From positions 186,299 through 250,298 of the forward strand of contig CAKOWQ010000003.1 of the NCBI GenBank assembly GCA_934122395.1: a DNA stretch of 64,000 bases, read 5' to 3'. The translations under genes and the position numbers were made by a program. Shown here piece after piece: positions 1 through 61,638 of the stretch. The notes below the pieces were generated by a model that saw nothing but the letters and a program-made list of their open reading frames with translations, did no database searches and was not told the origin of the DNA. The DNA is from an uncultured Bacilli bacterium. Its GTDB lineage: Bacteria; Bacillota_I; Bacilli_A; RF39; UBA660. Numbering within the stretch: position 1 is the stretch's first letter; each line of letters starts with the position of its first letter.

Positions 1-680
1 TATCTGATATACATGATTTGTTAGCACTTAAAATAATGGTAGATGAAGTAGAAAATTGCTATAGAACATTATATTTAATACATAATGAGTATCATCCAAT
101 AAACGATAAATTTAAAGATTATATTTGTAATCCAAAAACAAATATGTATCAAAGCTTACATACAACAGTTTTTGGACCTGATGATAGGTTAGTACAAACA
201 CAAATTAGAACTTTTGATATGGATAAAGTGGCATCCTTTGGTTTGACTGCATACTGGGATGAACAAAAGGGAAAAGCAAGAGATGCAATGCAAGATGATT
301 TAAAACAAAAATTTCAATTTTTCAAATCATTAACAGAAATTAATTCCATGTTCGGAGATAATCAACAATTTGTAAATCAAGTAAAGACTGAATTATTTGC
401 GGACAAAGTTTATGTTTATACCACAAAGGGTGATATAATAGAATTGCCAAAAGGGGCTACACCAATAGATTTTGCATATAAAATACATACTGATATAGGA
501 AATACAATGGTAGGAGTATTTGTAAATGATGAGTTTGTACCAATAGATTATGCATTAAGAAACAAAGATAGAGTTAGAATTGTCACTGATGAATTATCTT
601 ATGGACCAAGAGAAGATTGGATAGATAAAGCTCAAACAAGTTTAGCAAAAAGAAAAATAAGAGAATTTAATAAAAAGTAG
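1..680 (+). CDS. rel: RelA/SpoT-family (p)ppGpp synthetase/hydrolase, 3' part (gene begins upstream of the window); ends just after the TGS domain
   Basis: Synthetase-domain motifs DYICNPKTNMYQSLHTTV and QTQIRTFDMD, then TGS-like VYVYTTKGDIIELPKGATPIDFAYKIHTDIGN; the reading frame is open from the window edge; stop at 678-680. Confidence 0.9.
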   Translation, partial: SDIHDLLALKIMVDEVENCYRTLYLIHNEYHPINDKFKDYICNPKTNMYQSLHTTVFGPDDRLVQTQIRTFDMDKVASFGLTAYWDEQKGKARDAMQDDLKQKFQFFKSLTEINSMFGDNQQFVNQVKTELFADKVYVYTTKGDIIELPKGATPIDFAYKIHTDIGNTMVGVFVNDEFVPIDYALRNKDRVRIVTDELSYGPREDWIDKAQTSLAKRKIREFNKK

Positions 681-690
681 ACTGGAAGTA

Positions 691-1230
691 ATGAATGTGA
701 AAAGAAAATTTTCTAAGATTACAGAAACTAAATTTGTAAAAAAAGATATTATTTATCAAGATACAAAAGGAACGGTTTTTTGCATAAAATTTGATTCTAA
801 TATAACCCCTTCATTTGTTGAAGATGAAATACCTAAAATATGTATAAAAGATAAAGATTATATTTGGTTTGAATTTTATCCGAATGAAAAATCTTATTTA
901 TTAACTATAATGTTTGATGATAAACTAAATATTATTCAATGGTATTTTGATGTTTCCAAATTTGTTGAGTGTAACAATTGCATACCATATCAAGATGATT
1001 TATATCTAGATTTAGTTATTAAACCAACTGGGAAATTTAAAATACTTGATGAAGATGAATTGTATGAAGCATTACAAAAAAAAGAAATTACAATTGATGA
1101 ATTTAATTATGCATATGAAATATTAAATCAACTGATGAAAAAATTTGCTAATAATTATAATTACTTACTAAATTTAACTAACCATATCTTGAAGATGTTT
1201 GAGGAGGAAATAAAGAATGGAAAAATATAA
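691..1230 (+). CDS. DUF402-family protein (Ntdp/FomD-like nucleoside di/triphosphatase fold)
   Basis: WYFDVS...DDLYLDLVIKPTGKFKILDEDELYEA pattern typical of DUF402; ATG lies 10 nt after the rel stop. Confidence 0.6.
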   Translation: MNVKRKFSKITETKFVKKDIIYQDTKGTVFCIKFDSNITPSFVEDEIPKICIKDKDYIWFEFYPNEKSYLLTIMFDDKLNIIQWYFDVSKFVECNNCIPYQDDLYLDLVIKPTGKFKILDEDELYEALQKKEITIDEFNYAYEILNQLMKKFANNYNYLLNLTNHILKMFEEEIKNGKI

Positions 1231-2092
1231 TGGAAAATATGTAACTATAATGTTATGTTCACAATGTAATAATAATTGTAAACATTGCTATATAAGTTAT
1301 TCAGGAAGATTTGCTGATGAAGAATTATCAAGAATAATTCCAAATTTAAATGAAAAATATACAATTTTATTAAATGGTACAGAACCGATTATGTATCCTG
1401 AATATTATAAATATTTTAAAATGGTAAACGAACATAGAATAATAACAAACGGAATAACAATTCTTGAAAATCCAAATGTTTTGGATCAATTATCGGAAAA
1501 TGGAATTAATGAAGTTTGGCTTTCATACCATTTTGGTATTCAAAACGAAATATCAAGAATTAATGAAAATCAGTTAAATAATGTTATTCAGATTCTTAAA
1601 AAGAACAATTTTTTAGTAAAATTGATGTGTTCTTTATCAAAACATAATTATCAAAATGTTTCTAAATTCTGTGAAAGAGCATTAGAAATTGGAGCTGACA
1701 AAATAAAATTTACTAATTTTATTAGTCAAGGAAGTGCAAAAAGCAACTTTGATAACTCAGAATTTTTAAATCAAGAACAAATAAATTTTGTTTTGGAAGA
1801 AATAGAAAAAATGAGATCAATTATACCAAAGGAAGATTTGAATATACAAAGATGTGGAACATTTGGACCAAATATTCATAAAAACAATTTTCGATGTTTG
1901 GCTGGACAAGATATGATAGTTCTTACTCCAGATAGAAAACTATACAATTGTGTATTTAACATATCAAGTGATGATTGCATTGGATATATGGATAATGACT
2001 ATAATTTAATTATAAATTCAGAAGTTGCACCAATAAATCAATCATATTGTAAGGTACTAAAAAAACACAACGGAGTTGGAGGAATAAATTGA
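1217..2092 (+). CDS. Radical SAM protein with Cys-rich C-terminal (SPASM/twitch-like) region
   Basis: CNNNCKHC (CX3CX2C) near the N-terminus, GTEP (GGEP-like), C-terminal CGTFGP..FRCLAG..LYNC; SD GAGGAGG; overlaps the upstream gene by 14 nt. Confidence 0.8.
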   Translation: MEKYNGKYVTIMLCSQCNNNCKHCYISYSGRFADEELSRIIPNLNEKYTILLNGTEPIMYPEYYKYFKMVNEHRIITNGITILENPNVLDQLSENGINEVWLSYHFGIQNEISRINENQLNNVIQILKKNNFLVKLMCSLSKHNYQNVSKFCERALEIGADKIKFTNFISQGSAKSNFDNSEFLNQEQINFVLEEIEKMRSIIPKEDLNIQRCGTFGPNIHKNNFRCLAGQDMIVLTPDRKLYNCVFNISSDDCIGYMDNDYNLIINSEVAPINQSYCKVLKKHNGVGGIN

Positions 2093-3126
2093 AAATTTGT
2101 GGAAGAATTATAAATGTAAAACTAAAAACAAATGTATTGTTTTTATTGATTGAAAACAATAAAATCACACAAATAGTCATAAAAAATAATATTGAATATT
2201 TCTTAAATAATTTGAATGCTGGTGATATAGTTGAATGTCTCGTCACTAAAGATAGAAATAACAACGGAAAATATAAGCCAAAATATGATTCTTTTTTACT
2301 TAGAAGTCTAAAGATAATTAGTAAAAATAAAAAAAATTACAAATTAACATTAAATAAAACAAATATTATAAAATATAGTGATGTTAAATATGAAATAAGA
2401 AAATATTTACACAAATTAGGATATTTAGAAGTTACGTTGCCTATTTTAACTAATGGAGAAGTATCTTCAAAGTCAGAATCATTTTGTACTTTATATTCTA
2501 AGAAAAATATTAAATTATATTTGCGAAAAACTATGGACATATTTTTAAGAATGTATTCTTGTAGTGATTTTAATAAAATTTATTGTATAGGAAATTGCTA
2601 TAGAAATGAATATCTTACAAGTAAATATAAGCCAGAATTCGAAATGCTTTCCATCTTTAGCAATTATCTAAGTAAAAATAATGCAATAAAATTAGCTATA
2701 AAAATAATAAAAATTATAACTTCCAAGGATATTGAATGCAGTTTTATAGATGAAAAATCATATAATGAAATCACCCCGAGTGATAATACTTTTTATGTGA
2801 TAAATAATTATGCCAATTCTACAAATAGTTACTGTGATGTGCTTGAAAATGACAAAACAGATGAATTTAAAGTTAAATACAAAGGTGTTACCATTGTTCA
2901 TGGTGTAAGTGAAATATGCAATTATGATGAATATGTAAAAAAAATAGAGCTTCAAGGGAAAAAAGATGATTATGGTGAATTGCAAATTATTGAGAATTTA
3001 ATTGATTCTGGTGCTCCACAATGTTATAATCTGGGTATTAGTATAGTCAGACTTTTAAGTTTATATAATAATCTAAAAATTAAAGATTATGATATATTTT
3101 CATTTGATAGATTAGGAGAAATTTAA
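2089..3126 (+). CDS. Shortened class IIb aminoacyl-tRNA-synthetase paralog (LysRS/EpmA-like core with N-terminal OB fold), 345 aa
   Basis: OB-like KICGRIINVKLKTNVLFLLIENNKITQIVI..GDIVECLV; motif-1-like IRKYLHKLGYLEVTLPILT; motif 2 YCIGNCYRNE..YKPEFEMLS; motif-3-like GAPQCYNLGISIVRL; TTG start 7 nt after GGAGG, 4-nt overlap with the upstream gene. Confidence 0.65.
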   Translation: MKICGRIINVKLKTNVLFLLIENNKITQIVIKNNIEYFLNNLNAGDIVECLVTKDRNNNGKYKPKYDSFLLRSLKIISKNKKNYKLTLNKTNIIKYSDVKYEIRKYLHKLGYLEVTLPILTNGEVSSKSESFCTLYSKKNIKLYLRKTMDIFLRMYSCSDFNKIYCIGNCYRNEYLTSKYKPEFEMLSIFSNYLSKNNAIKLAIKIIKIITSKDIECSFIDEKSYNEITPSDNTFYVINNYANSTNSYCDVLENDKTDEFKVKYKGVTIVHGVSEICNYDEYVKKIELQGKKDDYGELQIIENLIDSGAPQCYNLGISIVRLLSLYNNLKIKDYDIFSFDRLGEI

Positions 3127-4203
3127 ATGAAAGAAGAAATTGATTTAAAAAAACTAACAAAAGAATATTTAAAATCTTATTATTCTATTAATTCTTATAT
3201 AGGATGTACAATAAATTGTGGATACTGTTTTTTAGCACCAATTAAAATAGTTCCAATGCGTCCAATAAAAGTCATAGATGAAAAAGAATTGATACGTAAT
3301 ATGATTAATGACAATTATTTTGAAAAAGGTAAAACTGTTATATCTTTGAATAATAGAACAGACCCATTTATATCACAAGAAGTTAAAAATAGTACTTTTA
3401 AATTATTAGATATTATGGAAGAATTGAATCTTAAAAATATTGTTACAATAACATCAAAAGGTCTATTAACTGAAGAAGATGCAAAAAAATTAGATAGTTA
3501 TAATAATATTAAAATCGTTATTATTGTAACTTATAATGGAATCCCTTTAAAAATACAACCTATTAATAAAATAAATCAAGAAAATACTATGAAAAATGTT
3601 TCAAAATGTAAAAATGTTTATTTGTTGCATCAATTTAGGCCTATTATTCCTGGGGTAAATGATGATGAAAAAACAATTAGAGAAGTAGTTGATTTTGCTA
3701 AAAAGTATTGTGATGCAACGATTTTCCAAGGAATTAGAGTTAACGATTATATAAAAAATAGACTTGAAGAAAGAGAATACTTGTATAGTGGTACAGTTGG
3801 TGATTCACATAAACAAAAAAGTGCGAGTACGGACGCGATATTTGAACAACTAAGACTTGAAGATAAAAATTATCAAATTTTCGATCATACATCCTGTGCT
3901 TTAAGTTATATTTTTAAAACGGCAGATTATAACTTACATTATTCTAAAAATAATTGCTCTAAATTGTGTAAAAATTATGAATTATGTCATAACTTAAATT
4001 ATAAATTACCTGTAGACTTAGAAGGTAAACTAAGAAAAATTGGTGTTAATTCCAATTGGGAGCTAAGGGATAAAACTTTAATAATTGATGGTTCATTAAA
4101 TGATGAACAAAAATCTTATATTAAACATATATTGAATCTTAATGTGAAAGCTAAAATTAGGGAAAATACATATTCAGAAAAAATAATGGAGGGAAAAAAG
4201 TGA
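3127..4203 (+). CDS. Radical SAM protein, COG1533/SplB-like (photolyase-like) family
   Basis: GCTINCGYC (CX3CX2C); NNRTDPFISQE, VTITSKG and FRPIIPGVNDDE match the family pattern; ATG directly abuts the upstream stop. Confidence 0.75.
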   Translation: MKEEIDLKKLTKEYLKSYYSINSYIGCTINCGYCFLAPIKIVPMRPIKVIDEKELIRNMINDNYFEKGKTVISLNNRTDPFISQEVKNSTFKLLDIMEELNLKNIVTITSKGLLTEEDAKKLDSYNNIKIVIIVTYNGIPLKIQPINKINQENTMKNVSKCKNVYLLHQFRPIIPGVNDDEKTIREVVDFAKKYCDATIFQGIRVNDYIKNRLEEREYLYSGTVGDSHKQKSASTDAIFEQLRLEDKNYQIFDHTSCALSYIFKTADYNLHYSKNNCSKLCKNYELCHNLNYKLPVDLEGKLRKIGVNSNWELRDKTLIIDGSLNDEQKSYIKHILNLNVKAKIRENTYSEKIMEGKK

Positions 4204-5474
4204 ATATAAAAATATTTTTTGATTTTCACGATGTATTTGTTGATGCAAAAAGCGCGTGGATTAAAGCATTAAAAGAAAAAACTAAATCAAATAAGGCAGA
4301 AATTGACTACAATAGAGGGTTATCAAAAAAAATAATATGCGAAAAATATAAATTAAATTATGAACAACTAGAAAAACTTTACAGAGTATATTTAAATCCA
4401 ATTAATGATAATATTGATTTTGCTGAAAAATTGAGTCAATCATATAAAATAAATATTTTATCTATGTCTAGAAAAGACAGATTACTTAAAGATATGCAAA
4501 AATTCAAACTTATTAATTTGTTTGATACGATAATCTCTAAAGAAGATATAATAGAATATAAAACAAAAGATGAATATTTAGTTTCTATTTCTTCTGATTA
4601 TGATTGGATTATATATTTTAATCATGAAAGTAATACTATTATTCAGAAAGATAATATTATTTATTTACCAGTAAATTTAAAAGGAGATTTATCTAAATTT
4701 AAAAATATTAGTTTTACTGAACATGCTAAAAACAAATTGCTATATAATGACTTATCTAAATATTATATGTATGCGATTGCTAATGATACTTCTTTGGAAA
4801 CAAACTTTTTATCAGAAATATATAAAAGATATAATTTGCCAACCGATGGAAAAATCCTTGATTGCTGTTGTGGTGTAGGACGACATGACTATTTACTTGC
4901 AAATGCTGGCTATCAGGTCACTGGAATCGATATTTCTAAAGAACAAATAACTAATGCAAAAAGAATTCATAATCATAAGAACATTGATTATCATGTTATG
5001 GATGTAAGGCATATTGATTTATTAGAAAAAAATTATGATATGTCAATTTGTATGTGGACAACTTACAATTATCTTTCCCAGGATAGTGATTTTGTAAGCT
5101 TTATCAAGTCAAATTATCAGCACCAACATAAAGGATCATTGATAGTATTAGATTCAAAAAACATTCCTAGATTAAATAATAGACGAGTTTATAAAAGAAA
5201 TAGTTCAACTGATAACGGAATAGAAATAGAACTAATTGTAAACAAATATATTATTAACAACATACAAAATTCACAATACCTATACTTTATAAAAGATAAA
5301 GACGATAAGAAATTTTATTTTGATGATGAATTCGTAAGATTTTATACTCTTGATGAAATTACAAAATTGGTAAATGAGTATTACGAAGTGGTAGATGTAT
5401 TTGGAGATTTTGATTTTAGTTCCTATGATAAAAAAATGAGTAATAGATTTATTGTGGTATTAAGGAGAAAGTAA
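4200..5474 (+). CDS. Two-domain protein: degenerate HAD-like N-terminus fused to a class I SAM-dependent methyltransferase
   Basis: MTase motif I ILDCCCGVGRH and VTGIDIS; N-terminal IFFDFHDVFVD resembles HAD motif I, but the second Asp position is His; GTG start after GGAGGG; 4-nt overlap. Confidence 0.7.
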   Translation: MNIKIFFDFHDVFVDAKSAWIKALKEKTKSNKAEIDYNRGLSKKIICEKYKLNYEQLEKLYRVYLNPINDNIDFAEKLSQSYKINILSMSRKDRLLKDMQKFKLINLFDTIISKEDIIEYKTKDEYLVSISSDYDWIIYFNHESNTIIQKDNIIYLPVNLKGDLSKFKNISFTEHAKNKLLYNDLSKYYMYAIANDTSLETNFLSEIYKRYNLPTDGKILDCCCGVGRHDYLLANAGYQVTGIDISKEQITNAKRIHNHKNIDYHVMDVRHIDLLEKNYDMSICMWTTYNYLSQDSDFVSFIKSNYQHQHKGSLIVLDSKNIPRLNNRRVYKRNSSTDNGIEIELIVNKYIINNIQNSQYLYFIKDKDDKKFYFDDEFVRFYTLDEITKLVNEYYEVVDVFGDFDFSSYDKKMSNRFIVVLRRK

Positions 5475-5983
5475 TGAATAATGAATTAAAAAAATTAAAT
5501 TCATTATTTGATGGTAGTGATGAATCTGCTATGAATATTGCATATGACATTGCACATAAATATTCTTCTTGCAGATTATGTGGAGTTGGTAAAGGTGTTG
5601 GTGCAGTTATAATTAAAGATAATAAAATAATTTGTTATGGATATAATGGTATAATTGATAATATTAAACCATGCACTAAAGATAGTTGTCTAAGAATATC
5701 TAGAAATATTGAACATGGCACAAGAAGAGATGAATGTTATGGAGATTGTGCAGAAAAACGTGCATTCATTAATGCTTACCAAAATAATATAGACATAAAA
5801 AACTCAAAAATATATATTACAAAATCTCCTTGTGTATCATGCTGTAAATTACTAATTAATTTAGGAATAAAAGAAGTCATATATAATGAAATATATAGTA
5901 ATTCAGATTTTTCTTTTGAACTTTTAAATTTAGCTAGAATTAAATATAAAAAATTAGAAAATTTTTATAGAGATGATCATTAA
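5474..5983 (+). CDS. dCMP/cytidine-deaminase-superfamily zinc enzyme (ComEB/dCMP-deaminase-like)
   Basis: CAEKRAF ... SPCVSCCKLLINLGIKEVIY (C/H-A-E ... PCxxC); extra Cys/His cluster KPCTKDSCLR..H..C upstream as in dCMP deaminases; SD AAGGAG; 1-nt overlap. Confidence 0.8.
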   Translation: MNNELKKLNSLFDGSDESAMNIAYDIAHKYSSCRLCGVGKGVGAVIIKDNKIICYGYNGIIDNIKPCTKDSCLRISRNIEHGTRRDECYGDCAEKRAFINAYQNNIDIKNSKIYITKSPCVSCCKLLINLGIKEVIYNEIYSNSDFSFELLNLARIKYKKLENFYRDDH

Positions 5984-8293: not shown

Positions 8294-8890
8294 ATGAAAA
8301 AAGATATTAAACATTATAAACAATCTGGAAACGCTTGTGCTATAGCATGTTTGTTAATGATTTTGGAGTATTATGATGTGATTACAAAAGCTAATTATGT
8401 TTATGAGAAAAAGTACTATAATTCATATTCTTCTCAATATTTATTAGGAGTTCCGTTATCAGCAGTATTTTGGCATTTAATAAAGAATAATATAAATGCT
8501 GAAATGTTTCATTCAGAAAAAAACTTGTTTTCTAATAATAAACAAATAATTGACAATAATATTTTTAATCTTGCAATTATTGAATATAAAGAGTATCTGG
8601 AATATGCAATTCTAAAAGGCGCCAAAGTATACAATGGTGTAAATATAAATATCGATTTAATACAAGAAAAGGTCAAAGACAATTTCATTATTCTTGCTGG
8701 GGTAATCAATCAGAATTTTCATACTATTTTAATTACTTCTTTTAAAAATGATTACTTTATAGTTAATAATCCTGCAGTTAATGTATCTACAAATATAGAA
8801 GGTGAAAAAGTTAATGAGTTTATGAATACTGATATTGGAAAATGGTTTATCGCAATACCAAAAGGAGAAGTCTATGAAAAAGAAATATGA
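8294..8890 (+). CDS. Stand-alone C39-like (papain-fold) cysteine peptidase domain protein
   Basis: N-terminal Q-x4-C motif YKQSGNACAIACLLMILEYY; later FHTILITSF and VNNP could supply the His and Asn/Asp. Confidence 0.55.
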   Translation: MKKDIKHYKQSGNACAIACLLMILEYYDVITKANYVYEKKYYNSYSSQYLLGVPLSAVFWHLIKNNINAEMFHSEKNLFSNNKQIIDNNIFNLAIIEYKEYLEYAILKGAKVYNGVNINIDLIQEKVKDNFIILAGVINQNFHTILITSFKNDYFIVNNPAVNVSTNIEGEKVNEFMNTDIGKWFIAIPKGEVYEKEI

Positions 8891-9569
8891 AGATGATAAT
8901 TATGTTATATATTATCCTGATGCTTTAGAGGAGTTTGTAAATGATATGATAATTTGTACTAAGGCACAGATAAATAATATATATACTTTCTTTAATGTAA
9001 AAAATCTTAGAAAAATTCAAGTTAATTTATTTGATAATATAGATGAATTTAGAAAATTTGTTATTGATTTGCGTAGTGGTGATGAAAAATCATTACCTCA
9101 GTATGCAAAGGGAACTTTTGATGATGGGATGATTAATGCTTATATTGAACCTAACTTCATTAAAACTTCTAGTCTTTATGAAAAAAGAAAACGCATGATG
9201 CTACATGAAACTGTTCATTTGATATATAATGAAATTCTTTTAATGAATAATTTTGATAATAGAGTAGTATGGCTTGATGAAGGCCTTGCTCAAAACTTAT
9301 CTTTAGAAGAAGAGAAAAATGATAAAAAAATTAAGCAAAGTATTATTTCTAACAATATAGCAATTGATATAAATGATTTGAGTCATGGGGATATTTTTAT
9401 TACTAGTGAATATAACGGTTATGATTTATCATATTTTGCAGTTAGATATTTATTAGATACTTTGAATAGTAAACAAATAATAGAAATTATAAAAGATAAA
9501 GATAAGGCAATTAAACTTGGTAAGACAATAATTATAGACGCAATTAATTTTTATAAAAGGAGAGTATAA
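8874..9569 (+). CDS. Putative zinc metallopeptidase (peptidase MA-like, HExxH)
   Basis: MLHETVHLIY (HExxH) followed by WLDEGLAQ; start set at ATG 8874 (AGGAGAAG SD); overlaps the upstream gene by 17 nt. Confidence 0.55.
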   Translation: MKKKYEDDNYVIYYPDALEEFVNDMIICTKAQINNIYTFFNVKNLRKIQVNLFDNIDEFRKFVIDLRSGDEKSLPQYAKGTFDDGMINAYIEPNFIKTSSLYEKRKRMMLHETVHLIYNEILLMNNFDNRVVWLDEGLAQNLSLEEEKNDKKIKQSIISNNIAIDINDLSHGDIFITSEYNGYDLSYFAVRYLLDTLNSKQIIEIIKDKDKAIKLGKTIIIDAINFYKRRV

Positions 9570-10688: not shown

Positions 10689-12140
10689 ATGAAAAAGAAA
10701 AGCTTATTTATTTTTATATGTGCTGTTATATTTTCTTTAGGAATGGGTGTAGATGCTAAAGAAATAACAGTATGCTCTGATGCAGCAACTTGTGATTATA
10801 CAGTTTTAAGAGATGCTACTGATGCTTCAATTGCAGGGGATGTAGTAAAATTAAAAGAAAATACTACTATAACTAGAGGAGTGTTATTACATAGTGAAAC
10901 TACATTAGATTTAGGTGGATTTACATTAACAGCTGAACCTGGTACATTTATTGCGGTAATAAACGGTAATAAAGATGTTAAAATTGTTAATGGTACAATT
11001 GAATTAAACAATGCTGCTAATGCTACAGGGCAAAATGCTAATGTGGTAATGCAAGGTGTTACTACTAAAGATGGAGCTACTACTTCATTAACAATTGCTG
11101 AAGACGTTACTATTAATTCAAATTTAAATGGTATTGTTATTCAAGCAGAGGATAAAGAATCATACAACACAATTTTAAATCTTTATGGTAAAATTAATGC
11201 TAAAGAAGTAGGTATTACAATTAATGGTTTTATTAGTGTTGTTGATGCACTTCAACCGGTAGTTAATATTTATGAATCTGCATCAATTAAAACAACAGAA
11301 GGACCTGCAATATATGCTGCTGGTTACGGAAGCTGGAACATTTATGGAGGATACTTTGAAGGAACAGAAGCTGTAAGTGTCAAATCAGGTAATATTAATA
11401 TATCTGGTGGTACTTTTAAAGCAATTGGTGAATATAAGGAAACGCCAACAGTAAATAATCGTGGATGGGAAGATACAGGTGCCGCTTTATCAATTACTTC
11501 GAGTACGAATTCTTATGCTAAAAATGTTACATTAAAAATTACTGCAGGACAATTTATAAGTAAAAATGGTCACGCATTATATGAGGGAATAACTGATGCT
11601 AATACTTCTGCTATAGTAAATGCAAGTATTACTGGTGGTATATTTACTTCAGCTACAGGAAAAGATAGTGTTAAAATCACTTCTAATAGTGATACTTTAA
11701 ATGGAGTTATTACTGGAGGAACATTTAGTACTACTCCAAGAGAAGAATTAGTTAATTCTAATGTTTCATCTTCTACTTTGGATGATGGTACTGTATTAGT
11801 TGGTTCTAAACATGGAATTACTGTAGGAACAATTGAAAATGGTATTGTAACTTTAGATAAAAACGTTGGAATTAAAGGTGAATTAATCAAACTTACTATT
11901 ACCCCAAAAGAAGGGTATGAAATAGATAAGATTGAAGTCTTGTGTGATGGTGATGAAGTATTAAGAACTGATAACGGATTTATTATGCCAGACGGTGACG
12001 TTGAAGTAAAAGTTACATTTAAGAAAGTTATTACTAATCCTAATACTTTTGATAATAGCTTAAATACATTGATAATATTAGGGGTTTGTGCATTAGGCGG
12101 ATTTATAACTTATAGAAAACTTGAAAAAAGTGCTAAATAA
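10689..12140 (+). CDS. Cell-surface protein: signal peptide, parallel-beta-helix-like repeats, Ig-like repeat, C-terminal NPNTFDN + TM + basic tail
   Basis: Signal MKKKSLFIFICAVIFSLGMGVDA; recurrent GG[YTI]F turns (IYGGYFEG, ISGGTFKA, ITGGIFTS, ITGGTFST); ..GYEIDKIEV..MPDGDVEVKVTF module; C-terminus NPNTFDNSLNTLIILGVCALGGFITYRKLEKSAK. Confidence 0.7.
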   Translation: MKKKSLFIFICAVIFSLGMGVDAKEITVCSDAATCDYTVLRDATDASIAGDVVKLKENTTITRGVLLHSETTLDLGGFTLTAEPGTFIAVINGNKDVKIVNGTIELNNAANATGQNANVVMQGVTTKDGATTSLTIAEDVTINSNLNGIVIQAEDKESYNTILNLYGKINAKEVGITINGFISVVDALQPVVNIYESASIKTTEGPAIYAAGYGSWNIYGGYFEGTEAVSVKSGNINISGGTFKAIGEYKETPTVNNRGWEDTGAALSITSSTNSYAKNVTLKITAGQFISKNGHALYEGITDANTSAIVNASITGGIFTSATGKDSVKITSNSDTLNGVITGGTFSTTPREELVNSNVSSSTLDDGTVLVGSKHGITVGTIENGIVTLDKNVGIKGELIKLTITPKEGYEIDKIEVLCDGDEVLRTDNGFIMPDGDVEVKVTFKKVITNPNTFDNSLNTLIILGVCALGGFITYRKLEKSAK

Positions 12141-23968: not shown

Positions 23969-23996
23969 AAAAGTGTCATTTTGACACTTTTTTATT
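23969..23996 (+). terminator. Intrinsic terminator
   Basis: AAAGTGTCA-TTT-TGACACTTT followed by a T-run. Confidence 0.8.
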
Positions 23997-24056: not shown

Positions 24057-24719
24057 ATGAAGAAGTTTAAATTAATTAGTATTGTATTAGCATTTATAGT
24101 ATTTGTTACTATGCCAGTTGTATATGCTCATGAAGTTGAATTAAGTAGTGATATTATTACTATTCCTACTACTAGCGAGTCTGCAATATGGAAAGGTACT
24201 AAAGTTCAAATTGCCAGTAGTTATGGAGAATATAATTTTTATTATCAATATGTAGTAATAACGGACGAACAATATAAAAATTATATAGGAATAAAAGAAG
24301 AACAAAAGAAATATGAAGCGGAGCATAAACCAGTAGCAGGTGCAACTAAAGAAGAACAAAATGCATATGAAGAAGAAATGAAAAACTATGAAAAATCAAA
24401 AGAAGGTATTTTACCATCATATGATGATAAAAAATGGATTGCATCTAGTGATAATACTGTACCAATAGATGAAGAAAAAAATACAGAACCTGCTAAATAT
24501 GTTTTATGGGTAAAAGTTGAAAGTAAAACAGGAACAGATAAAAATGCTAAATACAACGATTTAGTAGTTGTATATAACCCTACTACTAAGAGTGATGATA
24601 ATAGTAAAAGTGAAGAGGAAGCTAATCCAAGTACTAGTGATAATATAATACTATTTGCAGCAGGTGCAGCATTAATTGCTGGTGTTATGGTTGTAAGTTT
24701 TAAAAAATCAAGAGCTTAA
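24057..24719 (+). CDS. Secreted Lys/Glu-rich surface protein with C-terminal NPSTSDN + TM + basic tail
   Basis: Signal MKKFKLISIVLAFIVFVTMPVVYA; C-terminus EEANPSTSDNIILFAAGAALIAGVMVVSFKKSRA; start at ATG 24057 after AAGGAGG. Confidence 0.7.
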   Translation: MKKFKLISIVLAFIVFVTMPVVYAHEVELSSDIITIPTTSESAIWKGTKVQIASSYGEYNFYYQYVVITDEQYKNYIGIKEEQKKYEAEHKPVAGATKEEQNAYEEEMKNYEKSKEGILPSYDDKKWIASSDNTVPIDEEKNTEPAKYVLWVKVESKTGTDKNAKYNDLVVVYNPTTKSDDNSKSEEEANPSTSDNIILFAAGAALIAGVMVVSFKKSRA

Positions 24720-24725
24720 AATAAA

Positions 24726-24756
24726 ATAAAGTAGCAAAAGCTACTTTATTTTTTTG
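24726..24756. terminator. Hairpin plus T-run between convergent genes
   Basis: ATAAAGTAGC-AAAA-GCTACTTTAT followed by T-run. Confidence 0.7.
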
Positions 24757-24865: not shown

Positions 24866-25534
24866 TTATAGTACTACTAATGCTAGTAAAATTAAATTAT
24901 AAATAACTCGTGCTATTATGTTTAATATAATATTATTGGTTTTGCTATATAGAAAAGATAAAAATAGTCCCACTAAATAGTAAGAAATAAAGAAAATATT
25001 TAGATTATTATATATCAAGTAAAATATTCCAATTAATATACTAGACACTAATATAAAGACTATATCATTGTTAAATGCTTTTCTTAAATTTTGTCTAAAT
25101 ATTAATTCTTCTATTATTGGTGAATATAGTATTAAGTAAAAACAAGATATAATAAAATTTTTACTGATACTATGTGTGATCGTTAAATCATTATTAGGAA
25201 TATTTATTTTTCTAGTAATTATAAAACTTAATATATTTACTGATAACATAATAAAGAATATTGCAAGGATAGATATTAGTATAATAATACTAGATTTTTT
25301 CTTATCTTTTATAGTTCTATCGATGCTTTTATCAATATCTTTTTTATAAACTAAATATATAATAAAAATATACAATGAATTTAGTATTATCTCATATACT
25401 GATATTAATTTATTATTATGAATACTTAATAGATTAAGAGGAACCTGTATAAAAGTAGACCATAATAAGTAACTAATAATAATTCCTAATGAAATAATAA
25501 ATTCTTTTCCATTTTTTTTATTTTTTAGTATCAC
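24866..25534 (-). CDS. CPBP-family (CAAX/Abi) intramembrane protease homolog lacking both conserved His residues
   Basis: Motif 1 SPIIEELIFRQNL present; the FxxxH position reads GIFYLIY and the HxxxN position reads ARVIYN; polytopic; GTG start without a clear SD. Confidence 0.75.
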   Translation of the reverse strand: MILKNKKNGKEFIISLGIIISYLLWSTFIQVPLNLLSIHNNKLISVYEIILNSLYIFIIYLVYKKDIDKSIDRTIKDKKKSSIIILISILAIFFIMLSVNILSFIITRKINIPNNDLTITHSISKNFIISCFYLILYSPIIEELIFRQNLRKAFNNDIVFILVSSILIGIFYLIYNNLNIFFISYYLVGLFLSFLYSKTNNIILNIIARVIYNLILLALVVL

Positions 25535-59856: not shown

Positions 59857-61638
59857 ATGTATAGTAGCAAGAAAAAAGTTGTAATAATAGTAATGTGCGT
59901 TATGATGATATTTATGGCTATTGGATATGCTGTACTATCAACAAATTTAAATATAAAAGGTACAAGTAATCTTACAGGTACTTGGGGTATTAGAATTGAT
60001 TCAATTACTAGTACTGCTACAGGTAGAGCTTATAATATTACCGATCCTACATATACTGATACTAATATGACATTTAATGTAGGAGTAAAGGAACCGGGAG
60101 ATAAGATGACTTTTGAGGTTGTACTTAAGAACTATGGTTCTATCGGAGCAATATTAGATGATATTGAAGCTAGTAGTAGTGGTAGTCCTTCAATTAATTA
60201 TAGTATTAGTGGCATTAAAAAAGGTGATAAATTAAGTGGGTATGCTAGTACTACTCTTACTATAGTGACAGAGTTTGATATTAATGCAACAGAACTACCT
60301 ACAGCAACTAATAAAACATTAAATATTAAATTATCATTTATTCAAGATGATGGTCAAACTATAACAGGAGATGATCCAACAATTGATGAGAAAGTTGTTA
60401 AAGTTTATGGAAAACCTGATACTATAGGAACTGAAATGCAAATAGGCAATGAAAAATTCTATGTAATATCAAGTAATTCTACTAAAGTTGTAGCTTTAGC
60501 TAAATATGGTTTGGATATAGTTACAGCTGATCCTAATGCGACTTACAAAGGAACTGGAAGGCAGGATAAAAAAATATTAACTTATTCAGAAGATGGGGTA
60601 TTATATGGTACACTTGCATTTACGAGTGATGATTTTTCGGCTTGTTCTAGTTATTGCACAAGTTATCCGTGTGATGCTTTTAATAGTTGTTCTGCTACAT
60701 ACACACCAGTTATGAATTATAAGACTTATTTAGAAAGTTTAGGTGCTCAAATATCAAAAGCTAGATTAATAACTTATGATGAATTAATTAATTTAGGTTG
60801 TACTGGCGATGTTGATAATAGTGGTAATTGTTCAAACGCACCATTTTGGACTCATGATATTTCATATTGGACAGGTACTTCTGGTAGTGAATATAGAGTA
60901 TGGGCAGTAAGTGCTCCATATAACATGTTTGTTAATGATGATTATGATGATAATCCTAGTGCACCTGGTACAACTTATGGAATTCGTCCAGTAATAGAAG
61001 TATTGAAGTCAAATATTGACTATATAGACTTGAAACCTAAAGCAAATGGAAATATTACAAAAGTTGGTACTGATATTCAAATAGGTGATGAACATTTCTA
61101 TGTAATATCTAGTGACTCATCTAAAGTAGTGGCTTTAGCTAAATATAATCTGGATATAAATAATGCACTTCATGTGTATAAAGGCACTGGAATACAAGAC
61201 GAACACGTAAGAGGTGCCGATTCTGATTCTACTACTACTGATTATGGCACTATAGCTTTTTCAACTACTAATTATTGGACTAGTACTTGTTCAAGTTATC
61301 CTTGTTATGTGTATAATAATAATTCTAACTTATATACACATGTTGAAGCATATAAGTCATATTTAAAAAATTTAGGTGTTTCAGTCACTAATGCTAGATT
61401 AATAAAAGCGGAAGAATTAACTGCATTGGGTTGTACAATTACTGGTGGATATATGAATTGTCAAAACAGTTCATACAATTGGATATATGAAACAGCTTAT
61501 TGGGCAGGTACGGCAGCAGAAAGTACTTTGTTAATAAATTCTAATCGCATTGGAAATTCTATCGTAGGAAGCTATACACATACTAATTATCTCGGCGTTC
61601 GTCCAATAATAGAAATACCTAGATCTGAATTTTCATAG
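59857..61638 (+). CDS. Membrane-anchored surface protein: Ig-like N-module plus two tandem about 210-aa Cys-containing lectin-like (DUF1566-like pattern) domains
   Basis: N-terminal TM; internal duplication (IG[NTD]E.FYVISS..KVVALAKY.LDI ... YKGTG.QD ... ARLI..EL..LGCT ... YW.GT ... G[IV]RP[VI]IE[VI]). Confidence 0.65.
   Translation: MYSSKKKVVIIVMCVMMIFMAIGYAVLSTNLNIKGTSNLTGTWGIRIDSITSTATGRAYNITDPTYTDTNMTFNVGVKEPGDKMTFEVVLKNYGSIGAILDDIEASSSGSPSINYSISGIKKGDKLSGYASTTLTIVTEFDINATELPTATNKTLNIKLSFIQDDGQTITGDDPTIDEKVVKVYGKPDTIGTEMQIGNEKFYVISSNSTKVVALAKYGLDIVTADPNATYKGTGRQDKKILTYSEDGVLYGTLAFTSDDFSACSSYCTSYPCDAFNSCSATYTPVMNYKTYLESLGAQISKARLITYDELINLGCTGDVDNSGNCSNAPFWTHDISYWTGTSGSEYRVWAVSAPYNMFVNDDYDDNPSAPGTTYGIRPVIEVLKSNIDYIDLKPKANGNITKVGTDIQIGDEHFYVISSDSSKVVALAKYNLDINNALHVYKGTGIQDEHVRGADSDSTTTDYGTIAFSTTNYWTSTCSSYPCYVYNNNSNLYTHVEAYKSYLKNLGVSVTNARLIKAEELTALGCTITGGYMNCQNSSYNWIYETAYWAGTAAESTLLINSNRIGNSIVGSYTHTNYLGVRPIIEIPRSEFS
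60400..61638 (+). repeat. Intragenic tandem duplication (two copies, offset about 615-639 nt)
   Basis: GGAACTGAAATGCAAATAGGC at 60427 versus GGTACTGATATTCAAATAGGT at 61066; CGTCCAGTAATAGAAGTA at 60985 versus CGTCCAATAATAGAAATA at 61600. Confidence 0.85.

Follow-up and report, generated by a model that had tools for sequence, protein, structure and literature searches.

Two genes in a 64,000-nucleotide stretch of an uncultured Bacilli bacterium (contig CAKOWQ010000003.1 of assembly GCA_934122395.1, positions 186,299 to 250,298; hereafter, the window) encode surface proteins of 483 and 220 amino acids (aa), referred to here as protein 1 and protein 2, whose C-termini carry the motifs NPNTFDN and NPSTSDN ahead of a hydrophobic helix and a basic tail. 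The question raised by this locus is which enzyme, if any, acts on these ends. Our comparative analysis indicates that both proteins are probably substrates of a class B sortase that is encoded elsewhere in the genome and has a relaxed choice of residue immediately after the predicted cut site (P1'). The signal is best read as a variant of the known class B sortase signal and not as a new system, and as one that is characteristic of a large lineage of uncultured, AT-rich, wall-bearing gut Bacilli. Its constant core, as judged from the aligned sequences, is best read as P-x-T-x-D(-N), with P1' free and the Asp at the next position (P2') fixed after the cut site in this lineage.

A sequence-only reading of the window had proposed that the two proteins share a C-terminal signal of the form NPxT[FS]DN plus transmembrane segment plus basic tail, and both open reading frames (ORFs) and both C-termini (KKVITNPNTFDNSLNTLIILGVCALGGFITYRKLEKSAK for protein 1; EEANPSTSDNIILFAAGAALIAGVMVVSFKKSRA for protein 2) were recovered exactly as it quoted them. 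Each protein starts with a Sec-type signal peptide (basic N-terminus, hydrophobic core and AxA-like site) and ends with the NPxT[F/S]DN motif, the helix and the basic tail, the motif lying within the peptide VITNPNTFDNSL in protein 1 and EANPSTSDNII in protein 2. The features concerned are as follows.

10689..12140, plus strand: gene for protein 1, a secreted 483-aa surface protein (ORF) with a signal peptide, a beta-helix, an InlB-type B-repeat domain and a C-terminal sorting signal.
10689..10757, plus strand: signal peptide of protein 1, MKKKSLFIFICAVIFSLGMGVDA (read by eye from the basic N-terminus, hydrophobic core and VDA-K site).
12036..12056, plus strand: sorting motif of protein 1, NPNTFDN, aa 450-456 (predicted scissile bond Thr453/Phe454; P2' is Asp455).
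12066..12113, plus strand: hydrophobic membrane-spanning segment of protein 1, TLIILGVCALGGFITY, aa 460-475 (16 residues; from the sequence, and a helix in the structural model).
12114..12137, plus strand: basic cytoplasmic tail of protein 1, RKLEKSAK, aa 476-483 (from the sequence).
24057..24719, plus strand: gene for protein 2, a secreted 220-aa protein (ORF; the public gene call, P0053, has the same start).
N-terminus of the 24057..24719 product, plus strand: signal peptide of protein 2, MKKFKLISIVLAFIVFVTMPVVYA (read by eye).
24624..24644, plus strand: sorting motif of protein 2, NPSTSDN, aa 190-196 (predicted scissile bond Thr193/Ser194; P2' is Asp195).
24645..24716, plus strand: hydrophobic segment of protein 2, IILFAAGAALIAGVMVVSF, aa 197-215 (19 residues), and basic tail KKSRA, aa 216-220 (from the sequence).

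Protein 1 matched the Pfam family Flg_new_2, an InlB-type B-repeat domain, at aa 377-446 (32.9 bits; cut-off 23.6), and its AlphaFold2 model (mean predicted local distance difference test score [pLDDT] of 84.8) consists of a right-handed beta-helix (25-372), a beta-sandwich (374-446) and a terminal helix (454-482). The motif falls in a short stretch of low confidence, and because pLDDT drops below 50 at aa 451-453 the model places it in what is predicted to be a flexible linker that joins the final folded domain to the helix. Comparison of the model with PDB folds returned no match at E <= 0.001; it resembles polysaccharide lyases and tailspikes weakly, and only in the generic sense of sharing a right-handed beta-helix. 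Protein 2 showed no Pfam domain. Terminator-like hairpins lie on either side of its gene (23969-23991 and 24723-24752), and the gene is apparently transcribed alone. A protein identical to protein 1 is encoded on 39 public gut-metagenome contigs and protein 2 also recurs exactly in dozens of public human-gut metagenome contigs, those carrying one protein or the other reaching 839 kb; since both are found on dozens of public contigs, they are real genes of an uncultured organism.

Within the window, the spaced pattern P.T.D is rare and well placed. The window as a whole has 27.3% G+C. A background scan of 56 of its non-overlapping ORFs (19,822 positions) returned three occurrences, two of which are the motifs of proteins 1 and 2, standing directly before the C-terminal helix and basic tail. 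The pattern is also retained among homologues. Orthologues of protein 1 (64-96% identity) keep NPNTFDN, NPNTLDN or NPSTFDN, and homologues at 26-43% identity carry NPNTLDN, VPNTIDN, NPDTVD, NPDTSD, NPKTSDN, VPQTFD, NPQTGD, NPTTGD, NPATGD or SPETGD at the same place, while a further branch has ETPKMG or ETPKTG. These homologues have the same N-terminal signal-peptide layout as protein 1, and Pro451 is the sole invariant column of the C-terminal region in the alignment (A3). For protein 2, an exhaustive search gave a family of 37 representatives, in which the close relatives (205-230 aa) all possess the signal peptide and the tail, and in which SPSTGDN, SPSTSDN, NSETSDN, NAETSDS, NAKTGDE, SPNTGDE and comparable sequences occupy the place of the motif. 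More distant homologues of protein 2 have LPxTG, LPxAG or IPQTG there, and the presence of these LPxTG-type signals at the same place means that the motif fills the slot of a sortase recognition sequence.

These alignments also qualify one part of the sequence-only reading, which had stressed an Asn at position 1 and the lack of Gly. Both statements are true of the two window motifs; however, the leading Asn is not constant (S, V, T and A occur), and Gly is one of the residues allowed at position 5, where it alternates with others among orthologues.

A direct link to a sortase was found in relatives. The gene for a protein 1 homologue ending in NPNTLDN (P0020) is convergent with, and 35 bp from, the gene for a 282-aa class B sortase (L006, 3535-4380, minus strand) that scores 171.1 bits on TIGR03064 (cut-off 153.75). 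The same model was passed by seven of the seven sortases tested (168.6-180.3 bits), drawn from both of the subclades discussed below, with the TLSTC active-site motif present. The sortase adjacent to P0020 and its relatives were used as queries for a sortase-side survey, in which a GTDB scan (one genome per species) yielded 585 relatives; the best 80 of these, nearly all metagenome-assembled genomes labelled uncultured Bacilli, Tenericutes, Mollicutes or 'Mycoplasma sp. CAG:776' (G+C 23-31%), were taken, and a scan of metagenome contigs contributed 80 further sortase loci, giving 160 in total.

Across the 160 loci there were 115 distinct ORFs with a C-terminal hydrophobic stretch and basic tail, and P.T.D was located no more than 16 residues upstream of this stretch in 50 of them (expected, 0.64); the other tails belonged mostly to polytopic membrane proteins such as FtsW. 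With the pattern loosened so as to admit S at position 4 and E or N at position 6, T and D were nonetheless the residues observed in 37 of 37 sortase-neighbouring signals, and with P, A or S admitted at position 2, P was observed in all 46 credible sortase-adjacent signals. Signals within 600 bp of a TIGR03064-type sortase numbered 23. The remaining positions of the 46 signals varied as follows.

Position 1 (P4): N 33, V 9, T 4.
Position 5 (P1'): G 20, Y 11, F 6, V 3, S 2, L 2, I 2.
Position 7: N 23, G 9, S 7, A 3, and E, H, K and D 1 each.

Both of the window variants were seen again at sortase loci (for example, NPQTSDN and NPKTFDS). Gly and non-Gly residues are exchanged at P1' within four homologous substrate families, and paralogues in a single cluster (L003) end in SPETGDN, APETLDN and SPNTLDN. 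Judged on these sequences, the P.T.D motif is not a product of chance. The idea of a single conserved cognate substrate beside the sortase was rejected, as the adjacent substrates represent many families with weak, domain-level similarity to protein 1.

Among solved structures, Bacillus anthracis SrtB (BaSrtB; 2oqw/1rz2, E 1e-40) comes nearest to these sortases, with Staphylococcus aureus SrtB, Clostridioides difficile SrtB and Listeria Lmo2181 next. For BaSrtB, NPKTG alone is not sufficient, and activity depends on the P2' Asp of DNPKTGDE (PMC11987632), a requirement with which both the sortase-side enrichment and the fixed P, T and D agree. The proposal of a non-LPXTG, sortase-B-like signal is thereby upheld by the conservation of the motif in homologues, the class B sortase beside the NPNTLDN homologue, the enrichment over some 160 loci and the P2' Asp of the BaSrtB signal.

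The signals described here share with B. anthracis IsdC (DNPKTGDE) N-P-x-T at P4-P1, the P2' Asp, the helix and the basic tail. However, the BaSrtB system has Gly at P1' and one known substrate, encoded in a haem-uptake operon, whereas P1' here is F, S, Y, L, V, I or G and the many substrates are unrelated to haem uptake. The loop from the catalytic Cys to the Arg or Lys also differs, being 10 residues long in BaSrtB and the other solved enzymes and 6 in all of the sortases found here. Class B signals without Gly at P1' are known from S. aureus (NPQTN) and Listeria monocytogenes (NAKTN and NPKSS, with N or S at this position and Ala tolerated at position 2) (PMC8225981). The non-Gly P1' and the Ala at position 2 bring the present signals close to those of S. 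aureus SrtB/IsdC and L. monocytogenes SrtB, the protein 2 family including NAKTGDE, NAETSDS and NSETSDN, although those species have one or two dedicated SrtB substrates beside a housekeeping SrtA, and neither an aromatic or aliphatic P1' nor an invariant P2' Asp is described for them. In C. difficile, the class B enzyme (recognising [S/P]PxTG) is the general, housekeeping sortase and acts on a range of surface proteins with no connection to iron uptake (PMC8225981); SPxTGD-type variants occur here too, but in the C. difficile motif P1' is still Gly, and no need for Asp at P2' has been reported for it. Our literature search on NPxTG- and NPxT[F/Y]-type sortase signals brought up a paper on pneumococcal class C pilin sortases and found nothing on this lineage.

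If the two window proteins are handled in the same way, both would be exported by the Sec pathway through their N-terminal signal peptides and retained in the membrane by the helix and basic tail at the C-terminus, leaving the motif [N/S/V/T]-P-x-T-x-D-(N) in the exposed linker to be recognised by the sortase. Cleavage would presumably follow the Thr, whose carboxyl group would then be joined to an amine of the peptidoglycan cross-bridge, so that the beta-helix or the small passenger domain would be fixed to the wall. A wall for such anchoring exists, since the window encodes mraZ-rsmH-ftsL-PBP2B, FtsW and MurD and the organism therefore makes peptidoglycan. Several genomes of the sortase clade (L025, L029, L032, L042, L058 and L063) bear NCBI names of Tenericutes, Mollicutes or Mycoplasma, which imply that no wall is present, while the window organism has PBP2B, FtsW and MurD.

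Current annotation models do not register this form of the signal. TIGR01167 (LPXTG cell wall anchor; cut-off 15.9) did not match protein 1 and scored protein 2 at 14.1 as a whole protein and 18.6 as an isolated tail, and NF033846 (Rumino_NPXTG; cut-off 23.5) similarly did not match protein 1 and gave protein 2 scores of 11.9 and 16.5, respectively. Protein 2 gave weak matches below threshold to LPXTG_anchor, Rumino_NPXTG and the C-terminus of IsdC. Tails scored in isolation gave no match when position 5 was F, L, V, Y or I, whereas tails of Gly-containing relatives passed TIGR01167 (24.8 and 19.9 bits). Both models describe the same layout of C-terminal motif, helix and basic tail as is seen here, but NF033846 expects Gly at position 5, where the window proteins have Phe and Ser. 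Filing the two proteins under either model was rejected, as neither reached the cut-offs as a whole protein, and because of these failures standard annotation would flag neither protein.

A sortase gene of the window organism itself was not located. The sequence-only reading had remarked that the window contains no sortase gene; a six-frame profile search found likewise, and also found none in the 10-kb flanks upstream (L118) and downstream (L210) or in the locus of a Hadza strain that encodes the identical 483-aa protein (L002). Five candidate sortase clusters (P0182, P0102, P0204, P0190 and P0075) proved to belong to other organisms or samples, and tetranucleotide distance at 10-20 kb did not separate the window genome from related species. 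The missing sortase and the outcome for the five clusters weigh against the class B sortase reading, as do several other points. The 160 loci were chosen for having a sortase, so that adjacency is partly by construction and only the enrichment of the motif is informative; loci from other genomes that were anchored on the substrate instead number two, one with a sortase (L006) and one without a sortase within 10 kb (L003). Lastly, once the P, T and D positions are set aside, the tails show no consistent excess of conservation over the passenger domains, and the expectation that the whole tail would be better conserved than the passenger was not borne out by the comparison.

Gene order in relatives did not help to place its sortase gene. 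In the closest relative found (L064), which matches the window at 80.7% of 683 aligned thrS bases, the gene for a 314-aa class B sortase lies 5 kb upstream of thrS within the order comEB-srtB-fba. This trio recurs in related species, with srtB 5-9 kb upstream of thrS in two relatives, while in the window organism the region upstream of thrS is strain-variable and is occupied by other genes. Hundreds of low-G+C genomes and contigs labelled Bacilli or Tenericutes carry a sortase, all of them retrieved by a sortase search, which does not measure its frequency in the lineage. We infer that the genome of the window organism contains a sortase gene as well.

Other explanations were considered against these data. 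One is that two class B sortases share the labour, a Lys-type accessory enzyme acting on signals with a non-Gly P1' (F, Y, L, V, I or S) and an Arg-type housekeeping enzyme, encoded in comEB-srtB-fba, acting on NPxTGDN, in which case the window proteins would need the Lys type. The position equivalent to the catalytic Arg of BaSrtB and S. aureus SrtB does divide the sortases by subclade, being occupied by Lys in 110 of 120 L006-like sequences (P0068-P0187) and by Arg in 117 of 119 L064-like sequences (P0188-P0306). It is unusual for a His-Cys-Arg triad to have Lys naturally in place of the Arg. The substrate-adjacent sortases are of the Lys type in 45 of 45 cases, and the Arg-type genes lie among housekeeping genes with no substrate close by. 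Furthermore, substrate genes within 600 bp of a Lys-type sortase have a non-Gly P1' in 20 cases and Gly in 3, compared with 6 and 16, respectively, at 0.6-9 kb (Fisher p = 7e-5, uncorrected for phylogeny or substrate family). Yet the swaps between Gly and non-Gly among orthologues of the four families and among the L003 paralogues are more simply explained by one tolerant enzyme, and the nearest relative of the window organism (L064) has the Arg type; we regard such a division of labour as rather unlikely. It is more doubtful still that the C-termini are plain, uncleaved membrane anchors in which the motif is an inherited remnant used by no enzyme in this organism. The failure to locate a sortase in the window and its 10 kb flanks and the unexceptional conservation of the tails outside the motif would both fit with this, but a relic would be expected to decay, whereas Pro, Thr and Asp are kept while their neighbours vary, among orthologues (64-96% identity) as well as in families whose identity falls to about 30%, and the relatives surveyed, L064 included, encode class B sortases (these loci having been retrieved by a sortase search).

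Processing by a different sorting enzyme was also considered. A CPBP/Rce1-like intramembrane protease (PF02517, 47.5 bits) is encoded at 24866-25534 on the minus strand, convergent with the protein 2 gene and 147 bp from its end. Proximity would favour this protease, but a CPBP homologue was found in none of 37 other substrate-bearing loci (within the flanks fetched) and nothing comparable stands beside the protein 1 gene, and the candidate was rejected for this lack of linkage; the position of the motif, the helix and the basic tail also match sortase signals, with canonical LPxTG at the same place in distant homologues, leaving a role for the protease very improbable. Equally hard to credit is the polymerisation of pili by a pilin-specific class B sortase, as for the FCT pili of Streptococcus pyogenes, in place of the anchoring of single proteins to the wall. 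Some class B sortases do polymerise pilins, Spy0129 (3psq) is among the structural matches (E 6e-19), and VPxTxD-type variants resemble the xVPTG signals of pilins handled by class B sortases. The passengers here, however, are a beta-helix with a B-repeat and a small domain of 160 residues, which are not pilin folds; the substrates come from many unrelated families, and the solved enzymes nearest to these sortases, from B. anthracis and S. aureus, serve in anchoring.

Several further observations were made in and around the window. Two small predicted peptidases are encoded at 8294-9569 (plus strand), directly 5' of a NUDIX gene and the protein 1 gene; they match Peptidase_C39_2 (31 bits) and Peptidase_MA_2 (26 bits, below the cut-off), and neither has a signal peptide. 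The variability upstream of thrS is seen when window positions 691-5983 are compared with positions 1-4796 of the Hadza strain (L002), although the two share the identical 483-aa protein. The window has a DUF402 gene, two radical SAM genes, a gene for a 345-aa class-II aminoacyl-tRNA-synthetase-like protein, a methyltransferase and a deaminase, and the genes at 691-5983 may constitute a small biosynthetic cluster; the Hadza strain instead encodes there a dockerin/Flg_new protein of 1337 aa and a cadherin-like protein of 535 aa.

Several large, N-terminally anchored proteins without a Pfam domain are encoded at 59857-61638 of the window (plus strand), at L118 1-2490 and at L007 15427-16773, and in place of a sorting signal they have a similar C-terminal ...G(I/V)RP(V/I)I(N/E)... 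sequence, which may be a common C-terminal domain of another class of surface proteins. At L014 14760-18054 (and in L015-L019), a module resembling a conjugative element (SSB, TrbL-like) carries a second, small sortase of 203 aa with TLITC, beside a 901-aa SpaA-domain protein that ends in MPKTFNT, a helix and KKKNK; this is a non-Gly signal associated with a different type of sortase.

The known mechanism of class B sortases is left unchanged by these results, and the finding is useful rather than surprising. The comparative data amount to a natural mutational scan of the signal, with Pro at P3, Thr at P1 and Asp at P2' fixed while P1' varies freely, a pattern that is in line with the single biochemical report of an essential P2' Asp in a class B sortase and extends it. 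The exchange of Lys for Arg in one subclade is relevant to the debate over what the conserved Arg contributes to sortase catalysis. We put forward, tentatively and with more doubt than confidence, that the class B sortases of this lineage have moved their recognition from the P1' Gly to the P2' Asp, accepting bulky aromatic or aliphatic residues at P1', with a large subclade, whose genes lie beside non-Gly substrates, using Lys for the catalytic Arg. If true, these enzymes would form a distinct specificity class, possibly useful as orthogonal ligation enzymes, and dozens of surface proteins per genome would be unannotated in a widespread gut group that is often mislabelled as wall-less Tenericutes. 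As the non-Gly form is missed by TIGR01167 and NF033846, the wall-anchored surface proteins of these abundant, uncultured Bacilli of the human and animal gut are under-annotated, and these are the proteins likeliest to touch host, diet and phage.

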